Assembly: GCA_001938485.1 (NCBI GenBank)
Contig: MQRK01191981.1
Location: forward strand, 28,412 to 92,411
Reading direction: 5' to 3'
DNA length: 64,000 nt
Source of the DNA: Girardia tigrina
Taxonomy: Eukaryota
Of the stretch, positions 54,960 through 59,110 are shown in pieces (the stretch's first letter is position 1; every line of letters starts with the position of its first letter). The notes under the pieces were generated by a model, which did not search any database, was not told the origin of the DNA, and was given only the letters and a program-made list of their open reading frames with translations. Made by a program: the position numbers and the translations under genes.

Positions 54960-56190
54960 TTAAGTGTTACTTTCGTCGTTTTCATACCAGCATAAGATAC
55001 ATACCTTTGCACTCCTTTCAGGTTCAAGATGATCCTTTGCAACACAAGATTTGATATAAAGAATTGCTCCACTTAGGAAAATTAGACAGGTGACGATGAC
55101 TGTCGAAGATACAATTAAAATCAGTGGAGATAAGAATAAAAGTTTATTTTATTGATCAAAAGACTTTCATTTTTTGTAACAGTAATGTTCGATTGCATTT
55201 TTAGATTTTTAGAAGAGAGTGTAATTGGTGATTGTTCGACTGTTGAGAGCTTGCTTTCATTAACGAAGGTAGATGGTATCATAAGCTTCTTGAGATCAAC
55301 GAGAGTAGTTCTCCAACAATTGTCACTTTTGAAGAATGATACATATCGAAGTTTGATGGCATATTCTTCTCCATAATTTAGATCTCTTACGACTTCTCTT
55401 GTTATTGATTGATTTAATATTATCATATATTCGGTTCCCATAAAGGTTGAGGAAATGATTACTTTTTCATTTTTTTGAGATTTTCTGTGAAATTGTATTG
55501 AATTCTTCGTTATAGTAATTTGAACTTGGTTTGTCAGATTAATGATATCCATTGTATAACTTTTAGCATAAACAAGGTTCCAATGTTGCATTGAATATTG
55601 TAGATCATCGTCTAAATACGCTTCATAATATGTTATGTTAAATACATATTGTTTATTAATTTCCAGATTATCGATCTTGAGAAACTTAGTTGGATACATT
55701 ATTCTTTTAGAAAACAGTCTGGAATCTTTTTGATACTTTAAAATGATTTTTATCAATTTGATTGATTTTAGGTTGATACTGACACTCAACCATGTAGGTT
55801 CGATGGTCAACATTTTGGACCATCTCTTTGTCCAAACTGTCATGACCGTAATATATTGCGGTTCAACTCCAGTGGCGTTTTCATTCTCCCAATATTTGAT
55901 TCGAAATGTATAGGGGTAATCAATTTTTAAATCTCGCATTATAACTGCTTTTATTGTATTTTTTAACATTATTTGATTTGATGATTTCCCCTTCTCTAGT
56001 GTTAACTGAAATATTTCAATTAATTTACATTGACAATTCCAAATTATCATATTATAGGATGAGAAAACCTTTAACTGATTCAGCATTGGTAATTCCGTTT
56101 TTGCAGGAAAATAATTAACATTTTGAGCTTGAGACAAAGGTATGGTAAGCCAACAAATCCAAGGGATAATTGATAGATAATTACAATTTT
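54960..56190 (-). CDS. Signal peptide + three FN3-like repeats + TM anchor, in frame with integrase (TM follows a frameshift near 55145)
   Basis: YLSIIPWICWLTIPLSQA-Q; repeats RDLKIDYPYTFRI, DNLEINKQYVFNI, RDLNYGEEYAIKL. The shifted frame gives LLFLSPLILIVSSTVIVTCLIFLSGAILYI plus a short tail to the stop at 54960. Confidence 0.65.
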
Positions 56191-56249
56191 TACTTTTCTT
56201 TGGTTTATCCATTTTTTGATTCTCATTTTTTGATTTATCTTTTCTGGAT

Positions 56250-59110
56250 CGAAAATTGTATCGAGGTTCCTCAGACTTTAATACCTTTTTGCATCTATTT
56301 GCATGTACTACTATGATTTCTGCATTTTTATTATTAGCTGGCTGCAGTCTAACATTAGTCGTCGTAAATCCACAAACTCTGTACGGTCCTTTGAACGGTC
56401 TTTGTAATTTAGCTGAAATGCCCTTTTTCGGTTCTGGTTTATGCAAATAAACTAGATCTCCAATTTTCAAATCATGATCTTTAGCCTTTTTGTCGTAAGC
56501 TTCTTTGTATTCTTCTTGATTATATTTGATCTTTAAACTTGCTTTTTCCCAAGCTAATTGCATTCTTTCTTGCATTAACATTTTGTAATTAGGGACTTCG
56601 ACGGCATGAGATTCTGGTTGTTGATAATTCAAATCAATTGGCATATTGTTTTTTCGAAGGTACATTAAATAAAAAGGTGTTTCTTGTGTGCTGGGACGCA
56701 CAGCATTATTATAAGAATAAACACATGGTTTCAAATGAACGTCCCAATCAGTTTGTCCATCATTAACATAAGACGCAATCATATTCAGTATTGTTCCATT
56801 AAACCTTTCGACAAGTCCATCAGTTTGAGGATGATAAGCCGATGTATTAATTTTTGTTATTGAAAAATAGTCTGTAACACATTTGAAAAATTCGCTCATA
56901 AAGTTTGAGCCTTGATCAGTTAATANTTTCTTTGGAGTTCCATACAGAAATATTATTTCTTCAACGAATACCTTTGCAACTGTTTCAGCTTTTTGATTTG
57001 GCATTGGAATTGCAACTGCCCATTTTGTCAAATAATCACAGAAAACGAGCACATATTTCCATTGGTAGTGAGGTGTAATGGTCCAATAATGTCCATAGCA
57101 CAGAATTCCATCGGGGCTAAAGGTACAGGCATAGGTTTTAAAGGTACCTTTCTTCTTTTTCCGGTATTTTTTCGAGTTAGACAGATTTTACAGGTTCTAC
57201 ACCATTCTTTGACATCTTGTTCCATTGTTTCCCAATAATATTTTTGTCTCAATCTCGATAATGTTTTTCTCACTGACAAATGACCTCCTAACGCTCCGTC
57301 GTGATAATGAAGCATGAGAATCTGTTGATGATTTTTAGGAATAACTAACAACGCATTTTGACCATCAAAATATTTTAGTATTCCTTTATGTACAAAATAT
57401 TTTTTACCATCATTAATTAATTGTTTTAATTGTTTCATATTTTCGATTTGTGGGGCATCCTTTATTAATGCTTTAATATTTTTATCATTCGATTGATCCT
57501 TTTGAAAAATATCAATGTCAGCAATTTTTCTTACAGCTGAAATTACAGTATTCTGAATGGATTTATCCTCATTCGAAACATCTTCTGATTCCAATCTGGA
57601 TAAAGTATCTGCGTTGGCATTAGCTTTTCCCGTCCTATAACGTATCTGAATATTATATTCTTGCAATTTTAATGTCCATTGTATTAGTTTACTGGCTGAA
57701 TCTCGATGGTACATTAACCATTGTAGCGGGCTGTGATCTGTATACAAAATTATTTCTTTGTCATAAATATATTGTCTGAACGTAGTAACCCCATATACAA
57801 TCGCTAGAGCTTCTTTCTCAATCGTTGAATATTTCTTTTCATGTGGTCTTAATGACCTGCTTGCATACGCTATGACATGATCCTTTTCATCATCAGCTTG
57901 TTGTCCAAGAACCGCTCCGATGGCATAGCCACTTGCATCCGTCATCAAAATAAAAGGTTTTGACATATCTGGATATCTTAGAATAGGTTTTGTAATCAGT
58001 TTTTCTTTGAGAGTTTCGAAAGCTTCTTGTTGCGATCTTTTCCACACAAATTTATTATTAAACTTTAACAATGAATTTAACGGGTTTGCTATATGAGAGA
58101 AGTTTCTGATGAATCGTCGATAATAACCCGCTAATCCAAGAAATCGTTGTAATTCTTTAACATTTTTTGGAGTTTGAAAATTTTTGACTTTTTCAATATT
58201 ATCGTCGTTTGGTTTTAATCCTTCTTTTGAAATTGTATGACCCACATACGATACTTGGGTTTTTCCACATTCACATTTGGAAGGTTTTATTTTTAAATTT
58301 GCAGCTTCCAGTCTTTCCAGCACTTTTTCTACATCATATAAATTTTCTTCAAAGTCTTTTGAATAGATAATAATATCATCAATATACACTACTGAATGAA
58401 GTATATCCATTAATATAAAATCCACACCTCTTTGGAACAATGGTGGTGCTACTGTTAGACCAAATGCTAGAACATTGAATTCGTATAATCCTTTCCCATC
58501 AGTAAACGCTGTTTTCATTTTATCCTCTTCTTTAATTCCGAATTGCCAATAACCACAATGCAAATCGATTGTTGAAAATATTGTTGCTTCTCCCATTCGA
58601 TCATACATAGTTCCTATTAAAGGTAAAGGATAAGTATCTTTTCGTGTAACAGCATTCAGTTTTCTGTAATCGACACAAACGTTGCGAACCATCTTTCTTT
58701 TTTACTAAAACAATGGGTGATGCCCATGGTGAAAAACTGGGTCTAATGATTTTGTGTTTTAACATTCCTTTGATTTGTCTATCACATTCATCTTGTAATG
58801 CGTACAGAATCTTGTAAGGTCTTTGTTTAATCGGAGTTTCATCAATTAACGTTATTTCATGTTCAATTACATGAGTTCTGTCCAGATCGTATTCGTGTTT
58901 TGCAAAAATTTTATCATATTTTCTTAATAAAGCTGTGAAAGACGCTCTTTCTTATTGGGTTAAACTTGAACTGGTGACTATTGGTTTGTCATATCTTTTA
59001 ACATCCGAAGGTATTGAATTAACTACTGAAATCTGCTGTACAGGTGAAATTGAATTACTGGAAAAGCTTTTCTTGTTTGTTGACTTTTTGGTTTCATTAT
59101 ATAGGGTCTT
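56250..59110 (-). mobile_element. pol: Ty3/Gypsy pol (RT-RNase H-integrase) with frameshifts near 58685 and 57055; gag and protease missing
   Basis: SPWASPIVLVKKKDG, CVDYRKLN, YIDD; RNase H TDASGYAIG/EKEALA/TDHSPL/ADTLSR; integrase HHCC, D-D-E (MDIIGP, TDQG, VERFN), GPY. The domain order is RT-RH-IN. Confidence 0.97.

Follow-up and report, generated by a model that had tools for sequence, protein, structure and literature searches.

A fibronectin type III membrane module joined to integrase in a gB-type Ty3/gypsy element of Girardia tigrina

What does a long terminal repeat (LTR) retrotransposon encode behind its integrase when its family already carries a gB-type envelope between gag and pol? 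The question is raised by a decayed Ty3/gypsy copy on the minus strand of contig MQRK01191981.1 of Girardia tigrina (assembly GCA_001938485.1, positions 28,412 to 92,411; this whole stretch of 64,000 nucleotides is called the window and is numbered from its first letter). An earlier note on this DNA had proposed that integrase continues in frame into a type I membrane protein with three fibronectin type III (FN3)-like repeats. We find that the integrase-fused FN3 membrane module is a real, conserved family trait that recurs in many copies. Such a module in an LTR element is apparently undescribed, the kind of element itself being already known.

Integrase and membrane module in one frame

A stop-free frame of 688 codons leads from the integrase GPY module through a basic linker into a signal-like stretch, as the earlier note had described, and about 330 of its residues follow the start of that stretch at 56179. 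The frame and its parts are as follows.

57187-55124, minus: open frame of integrase and FN3 module, 688 codons, no stop
56249-57187, minus: integrase core, GPY module and RYNFR end motif (PF00665 E 3e-8; GPY at 56389, RYNFR at 56263)
56180-56248, minus: basic linker after integrase, in frame and stop-free
56126-56179, minus: internal signal-like segment with a small-x-small, signal peptidase-like end (positions -3 and -1 small in most of 44 copies; dN/dS, the ratio of nonsynonymous to synonymous divergence, 0-0.3)
55823-56092, minus: predicted FN3 domain 1 (model residues 30-119; 7jgu, Z 8.0, root-mean-square deviation (RMSD) 3.1, 81 aligned)
55538-55816, minus: predicted FN3 domain 2 (9nqo, Z 8.9, RMSD 2.7, 83 aligned)
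55271-55537, minus: predicted FN3 domain 3 (7u01, Z 8.5, RMSD 2.5, 81 aligned)
55130-55270, minus: Ser/Thr-rich disordered stalk with N-glycosylation sequons (predicted local distance difference test score (pLDDT) < 50 for residues 306-352; S+T 27%; 3 sequons)
54963-55148, minus: transmembrane (TM) segment and cytoplasmic tail, in another frame in the window copy (breaks near 55140 and near 55000)

By hydropathy, this pattern of signal, ectodomain, single TM segment and tail fits a type I membrane glycoprotein. The window's signal-like stretch is where it had been reported but is only moderately hydrophobic (KD15 1.64), and the TM segment reaches KD19 2.47. A single frameshift had been thought to restore the TM segment and tail; both do lie in another frame, but this shifts again near 55000, so that the final residues there are not the C terminus of the family.

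Searching the same genome with the post-integrase part yielded at least 115 matches, from 92% down to about 35% identity (111 were scored of 1,632 candidates, and all such counts are lower bounds), while two distant relatives used as queries yielded at least 148 and at least 150, many on new contigs. From 159 fetched loci came 66 distinct integrase-to-signal junctions, 63 of them gap-free; 53 of the 63 are in frame and 50 are also stop-free, in about seven subfamilies, and the ten shifted junctions include six different lengths. These copies were collected by FN3 similarity. Other copies therefore do not stop right after integrase, the outcome that the earlier note had named as fatal to its proposal, and a stop fixed in any one subfamily was looked for at the junctions and not found. 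In seven copies (L007, L029, L037, L052, L058, L059 and L080) the frame from signal through TM segment to stop is open and gap-free, which is the intact form that the window lacks. Beyond this genome assembly, independent metagenome proteins have the fusion too: P0011 (912 aa, 90%) and P0013 (821 aa) run unbroken from integrase to tail, and the junction is shared by P0014 and P0005, whose identity is far lower. No such module follows an unrelated gypsy integrase of the same genome (L049, 28% identity).

In Drosophila gypsy, env is made from spliced RNA, and the membrane protein here might likewise come from its own spliced or subgenomic RNA, its open junction with integrase being incidental. 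The window's subfamily has a Met directly before the signal segment, as that explanation would have it. A linker Met occurs, however, in 13 of the 50 open junctions, 12 of them from this one subfamily, leaving 37 without; no subfamily has fixed a stop; no common YAG splice acceptor precedes the signal segment, the best position reaching 17 of 44 copies; and between subfamilies A and B the linker has a dN/dS of about 0.2. We consider a separate RNA quite improbable.

A profile of the FN3 module retrieved ten matches from 1.84 billion representative proteins, with no host-gene relative among them, so that the module has a narrow distribution in public protein sets, where animal transposons are under-sampled. 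Scanning IMG/VR and JGI metagenome contigs with the FN3 alignment gave 20 and 84 pattern matches, none confirmed. Small shares of the stretch (0.08-0.21) occur in 9 of 13 listed sequencing runs.

Fold, tail and selection

By structure prediction, the ectodomain is a row of three FN3 domains, each a seven-stranded beta-sandwich of about 90 aa with an L-x4-Y-x-F/V motif. The AlphaFold model, made for the window's own open frame with an alignment of 15 natural relatives, has beta-sandwiches at residues ~30-119, 122-214 and 215-303 and a disordered stalk (mean pLDDT 72.9; 68-92 per 10-residue block across 31-300). Taken singly, the modelled domains align to FN3 structures with Z 8.0-8.9, barely over the tool's common level, at RMSD 2.5-3.1 over 81-83 residues; the beta-sandwich fold on which the earlier note had staked its reading is thus predicted. 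Its three L-x4-Y motifs are present as well (55930, 55666 and 55381, spaced by 88 and 95 aa), as is its Ser/Thr stalk, which holds three of the seven N-glycosylation sequons of the window ectodomain, NES and NIT included. By profile the three repeats resemble each other (E 1e-6 to 5e-5), and Pfam fn3 is found in 7 of 16 module members (best E 3.5e-6). The predicted folds, together with an arrangement that recurs in many copies, argue that the feature of the window is not a product of chance.

Among PDB structures, Foldseek placed triple-FN3 fragments of fibronectin (E 5e-11) and Tie2 (E 1e-10) at the top, and further matches cover the FN3 arrays of IFNGR, IL-22R1, CD45 and CD148. Since these matches are tied in Z at 6-18% identity, no donor gene can be named from them. 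A sequence search of solved structures gave one chance match for the FN3 profile and nothing relevant for gB; in a fold search of BFVD the matches were FN3 arrays of phages and giant viruses, none of them specific. Atlas returned FN3 clusters at 0.95 (0.89 for the P0016 part) with a low recognition score, a lead only.

The short cytoplasmic tail has a conserved ending. Of 73 TM/tail matches listed, 47 reach the family end in frame by hand count, and 44 of these end in S/T-x-V/I; the other 26 are interrupted by earlier stops, shifts, gaps or contig ends. The residues in front of this ending diverge strongly between subfamilies, and the distant relatives P0016, P0018 and P0004 have the same S/T-x-V-type C terminus. 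S/T-x-hydrophobic at a C terminus is a class I PDZ-binding motif, and the conserved ending is accordingly described here as PDZ-binding-like, with binding a prediction. The earlier note was right that a tail exists and missed this ending, the window's own tail being shifted.

The expectation that dN/dS would fall below 1 across copies was borne out in the FN3 region in all 189 defined pairs (190 in total from 20 copies; range 0.14-0.69, distant pairs saturated). Between subfamilies A and B, dN/dS is 0.08 for integrase, 0.07 for gB and 0-0.03 for the signal segment, which is 94-100% identical at dS 0.6-0.8, compared with 0.20-0.29 for the FN3 domains (intervals below 0.6) and 0.4-0.8 for the stalk (intervals reaching 1). 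More distant pairs include some single-domain intervals that span 1 and one short stalk alignment at 2.6; within subfamilies, in this fragmented and gapped assembly, dS is 0.05-0.21. Purifying selection on the module indicates that it was functional in the active past of the element. On these estimates the FN3 module evolves several times faster than the gB fusogen, and its excess over both integrase and gB is what one would expect where a surface protein varies and the fusogen next to it is conserved. FN3 domain 3 appears to have a history of its own: between A and B (window 55271-55537 against L040, L037 and L052) its dS is 0.34-0.43, against 0.9-1.1 for domains 1 and 2, so this domain has likely been exchanged between the two subfamilies by recombination.

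Could the module be a functionless captured host fragment or an assembly artefact? The window copy and most others are decayed, and AT-rich low-complexity sequence may stay open by chance over short stretches. The selection and junction data largely refute the idea: every defined pair shows constraint, frames of about 400 codons with signal, TM segment and tail motif stand in several subfamilies, and the same fusion appears in independent assemblies. We regard it as scarcely tenable.

The fold and the rate of change bear on a second explanation, in which the protein is a receptor mimic that modulates the host on the surface of the producer cell, either as a decoy or dominant-negative form of an FN3 receptor of the host, whether of cytokine-receptor or of receptor-phosphatase type, or by blocking re-entry of related elements, with no part in entry. 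The matches to the FN3 arrays of IFNGR, IL-22R1, CD45, CD148 and Tie2 would suit such a mimic; the element has further host-like accessory domains (ubiquitin-like and ISG20-like exonuclease, below); and evolution faster than gB would fit an arms race equally well. The fold matches are generic, however, and point to no donor, the ten protein matches include no host gene, and fixed co-translation with gB and Pol would better suit a role in the particle or in assembly. A mimic is possible but, in our judgement, unlikely.

The surrounding element and its known relatives

The remaining features of the window copy, all on the minus strand, are these.

60284-60923, minus: last part of the Gag region, including a ubiquitin-like domain (PF00240 E 6e-6, PF11976 E 2e-4)
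59050-60410, minus: linker and internal signal sequence, then ~240 N-terminal residues of a gB-type (class III) envelope; interrupted by stops and shifts
57031-59052, minus: pol with protease C-terminal remnant, reverse transcriptase, RNase H and integrase zinc finger (PF00078, PF17917, PF17919, PF17921), broken by frameshifts
53140-54747, minus: separate accessory open reading frame (ORF), DEDDh 3'-5' exonuclease (ISG20-like; PF00929), stop-broken here
50862-51410, minus: 3' LTR, its 3' end set at 50862 and its 5' limit not fixed

This copy is truncated 5' of 60923, where DNA homology to other copies ends, and the window has neither a gag core nor a 5' LTR for it. An internal deletion at ~59050 has removed the remainder of gB and most of the protease; what is left of gB matches PF24664 weakly, compared with E 7e-81 in copy L032. 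The fuller layout comes from other copies. In L105 a single frame of 1,020 aa extends from Gag, which has three CCHC knuckles, over a ubiquitin-like domain and an internal signal into the first part of gB, and L101 likewise holds gag, ubiquitin-like domain, signal and gB in one frame. Four copies (L032, L033, L041 and L105) have a gB-type envelope with signal and TM segment between gag and pol. From the gB TM segment and tail to the protease, 28 of 30 loci keep one frame (13 stop-free, the stops of the others scattered) in a search that favours in-frame copies. The order protease, reverse transcriptase, RNase H, integrase and the GPY/F-type integrase end are those of Ty3/gypsy (Metaviridae), and LTRs and a primer-binding site of that group are found in different copies. 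The window's 3' LTR sequence, which lies downstream of the exonuclease gene and ends in CA, recurs upstream of gag in L092, L095, L098, L099, L104 and L108, where it is followed after 9 nt by a TGG primer-binding-like site; this LTR identity is established across copies, none of those examined having both LTRs.

As no copy examined is unbroken from end to end, a single polyprotein is deduced from overlapping junctions. Its length, estimated from domain spacing, would be roughly 3,200 aa. On this footing the element most likely encodes one membrane-threaded Gag-gB-Pol-FN3 polyprotein, followed by the exonuclease gene. Because gag, gB and pol also share the frame, the FN3 protein would be a module of that polyprotein and not a separate env-like gene; and because a gB-type envelope belongs to the same element, two predicted membrane glycoproteins are encoded. 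The earlier idea of a second surface protein in the env position survives in the latter respect and probably fails in the former.

A separate DEDDh exonuclease ORF stands behind the FN3 gene in other subfamilies too, and that of copy L036 matches ISG20 (PDB 1wlj) at E 1e-5. The window's exonuclease ORF (53140-54747, minus) has an upstream domain without a known family. Between the Gag knuckles and the gB signal (window 59628-60923, minus; L105) the ubiquitin-like domain is accompanied by a helical stretch and by what may be a second ubiquitin-like repeat (PF00240 E 0.09). An insert of ~1.2 kb (51861-53049), flanked by 8-nt direct repeats and absent from L031 and L048, separates the exonuclease gene from the 3' LTR and contains a cytidylyltransferase-like frame (51811-52443, minus; PF01467 E 0.004). 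Upstream of the element, frames at 61743-62812 (plus) have weak phosphoribosyltransferase-like and RING-like matches. Elsewhere the window has two dispersed repeat pairs (9790-10032/42846-43162 and 19318-19613/44287-44580) and a 177-nt inverted repeat pair at 27139-28042, probably other mobile elements; one of the dispersed pairs resembles 5S rRNA-derived sequence.

The element can be set beside several described systems. Planarian GAG-ENV-POL errantiviruses of HSV/gB type have been reported as Smed_errantivirus_1-6 by Chary and Hayashi (PMC13524379), and our element shares with them Ty3/gypsy pol and a gB-type envelope between gag and pol. By hand count, L032 gB and the listed Smed_errantivirus_1 segment agree in 49 of 69 positions, and this comparison of gB segments would place the element with the planarian GAG-ENV-POL gB errantiviruses. 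Fibronectin or FN3 and an exonuclease go unmentioned in the main text of that report as available, and fibronectin or FN3 in seven of its supplements. The giant planarian gypsy elements Burro/GYPSM1 measure 25-30 kb with an ORF of ~4,900 aa, and their domains include MATH, BIR, BCL2, ankyrin and dUTPase (PMC6431247). One polyprotein, Gag CCHC knuckles, a Ubi2/SUMO-like domain (PF11976) and env in frame between gag and pol are common to both; Pfam finds none of those five domains in the L105 gag-to-gB frame, gB or Pol of the present element, and the portion of the Burro report considered lists no membrane protein after integrase and has 0 fibronectin matches (PMC6431247). Identification as a Burro element was rejected, size and domain content being different.

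Atlas virus, of the nematode Belpaoviridae, offers a single Gag-Pol-Env polyprotein with its envelope in frame after pol and two glycoproteins, a variable GN-like protein (attachment in phleboviruses) and a GC fusogen (PMC9094657). It is a BEL/Pao element with a class II fusogen and both glycoproteins in one viral cassette after pol, as far as that account goes, whereas here a class III fusogen precedes pol and an unrelated, host-type FN3 protein follows it. Rotifer LTR elements also have, behind pol, an accessory exonuclease and membrane ORFs other than env; according to the sections seen these are separate ORF3s with a DEDDy enzyme and no FN3, unlike the DEDDh ISG20-like exonuclease and Pol-fused membrane protein found here (PMC5408684). 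The sORF2 of MDG1-group retrotransposons is likewise a non-env TM protein and serves cell-to-cell transfer; as presented there, it is a short FAST-like fusogen in elements without env, in contrast to a large FN3 ectodomain accompanied by a gB fusogen (PMC11952523). FN3 is unmentioned in PMC12440569, and in our literature search no LTR element turned up for which a membrane protein with FN3 had been described; Repbase lay outside that search, and an unindexed note may exist.

A possible part in transfer between cells

How might such a protein be made and used? The polyprotein would thread the endoplasmic reticulum membrane twice, with Gag and its ubiquitin-like domain in the cytosol, a signal, the gB ectodomain in the lumen, a TM segment, and then the gB tail, protease, reverse transcriptase, RNase H and integrase again in the cytosol; a second signal would carry the three FN3 domains and stalk into the lumen, and a second TM segment would leave the short tail in the cytosol. 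Signal peptidase could cut at the small-x-small sites and free the N termini of both ectodomains, and the element's own protease would trim the cytosolic parts. The product would be a type I glycoprotein of ~380 residues made in step with gB, the two glycoproteins standing in fixed ratio to Gag and Pol. From the particle or the producer cell membrane, the variable FN3 rod would bind a target cell surface, the S/T-x-V tail would bind PDZ scaffolds and direct assembly to junctions or to one membrane domain, and gB would carry out fusion. We give an even chance to this account, in which the FN3 protein is an accessory for transfer between cells whose rod attaches and whose tail sorts to junctions while gB fuses.

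The distant relatives inform both this account and its weaknesses. A quick, midpoint-drawn integrase tree has 61 rows. The 15 with an FN3-TM label all lie to one side of a branch with SH-aLRT 91, below the tool's strong mark, and P0016 and P0018 have signal, repeats, TM segment and tail motif. Several observations count against our interpretation. Within the FN3 branch, no FN3-TM was detected in the predicted proteins P0015, P0017, P0020 and P0021; just outside it, P0019 has a Cys-rich, non-FN3 ectodomain in the same slot. Ectodomain homology of P0016 and P0018 is weak (profile E 0.0014 and 0.065), and three of eight distant complete tails (P0008, P0003 and P0019) are not strictly S/T-x-V. The window's signal-like stretch is weakly hydrophobic and contains prolines; every copy examined is broken somewhere between gag and the FN3 tail; and genome searches put in-frame matches first. 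Finally, rhabdovirus G and class III fusogens like it need no partner for attachment, and a separate attachment protein is not required.

P0019, in which a stalk, a TM segment and a longer tail accompany the Cys-rich ectodomain, makes the post-integrase slot look exchangeable. It also suits a role in assembly. Here the signal segment would hold the integrase end of Pol at the membrane, and the FN3 protein would act on gB through its PDZ-binding-like tail, as a chaperone, spacer or sorting factor, and would bind no target cell: the ectodomain would be replaceable, the signal segment stands out for its conservation between subfamilies A and B, and the tail motif is better conserved than the ectodomain. 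Three full-length FN3 domains under purifying selection exceed the needs of a tether, and we hold this explanation to be distinctly unlikely.

Two side observations concern what else follows integrase. P0017, P0018 and P0021, relatives within the FN3 branch, have an aspartyl protease domain after it, in P0018 between integrase and the membrane module. The unrelated gypsy integrases P0050, P0053 and P0078 are in frame with signal-bearing extensions, a separate kind of pol-env fusion.

A bolder form of the account of transfer between cells can be put forward tentatively, and we think it somewhat doubtful: a lineage with a flavivirus-like, membrane-threaded single polyprotein, in which the work of entry falls to two proteins of separate origin. 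A class III fusogen taken from a virus would stand before Pol and an FN3 attachment or adhesion protein taken from a host after it, the PDZ-binding tail would steer to junctions, and the slot, filled by FN3 in most cases and by another fold in P0019, would be an exchangeable receptor-binding module that sets cell tropism.

How envelope-carrying retrotransposons move between cells outside Drosophila is described as an open question in the errantivirus report (PMC13524379). A second surface protein that is conserved and has a sorting motif offers a handle on it: the target cell would be known from the host partner of this protein, and the budding site from where the protein lies. If the account is true, this would be an LTR element with a two-part entry machine from unrelated sources, and one in which Gag, Env and Pol are processed by means of membrane topology and not by frameshifting or splicing.

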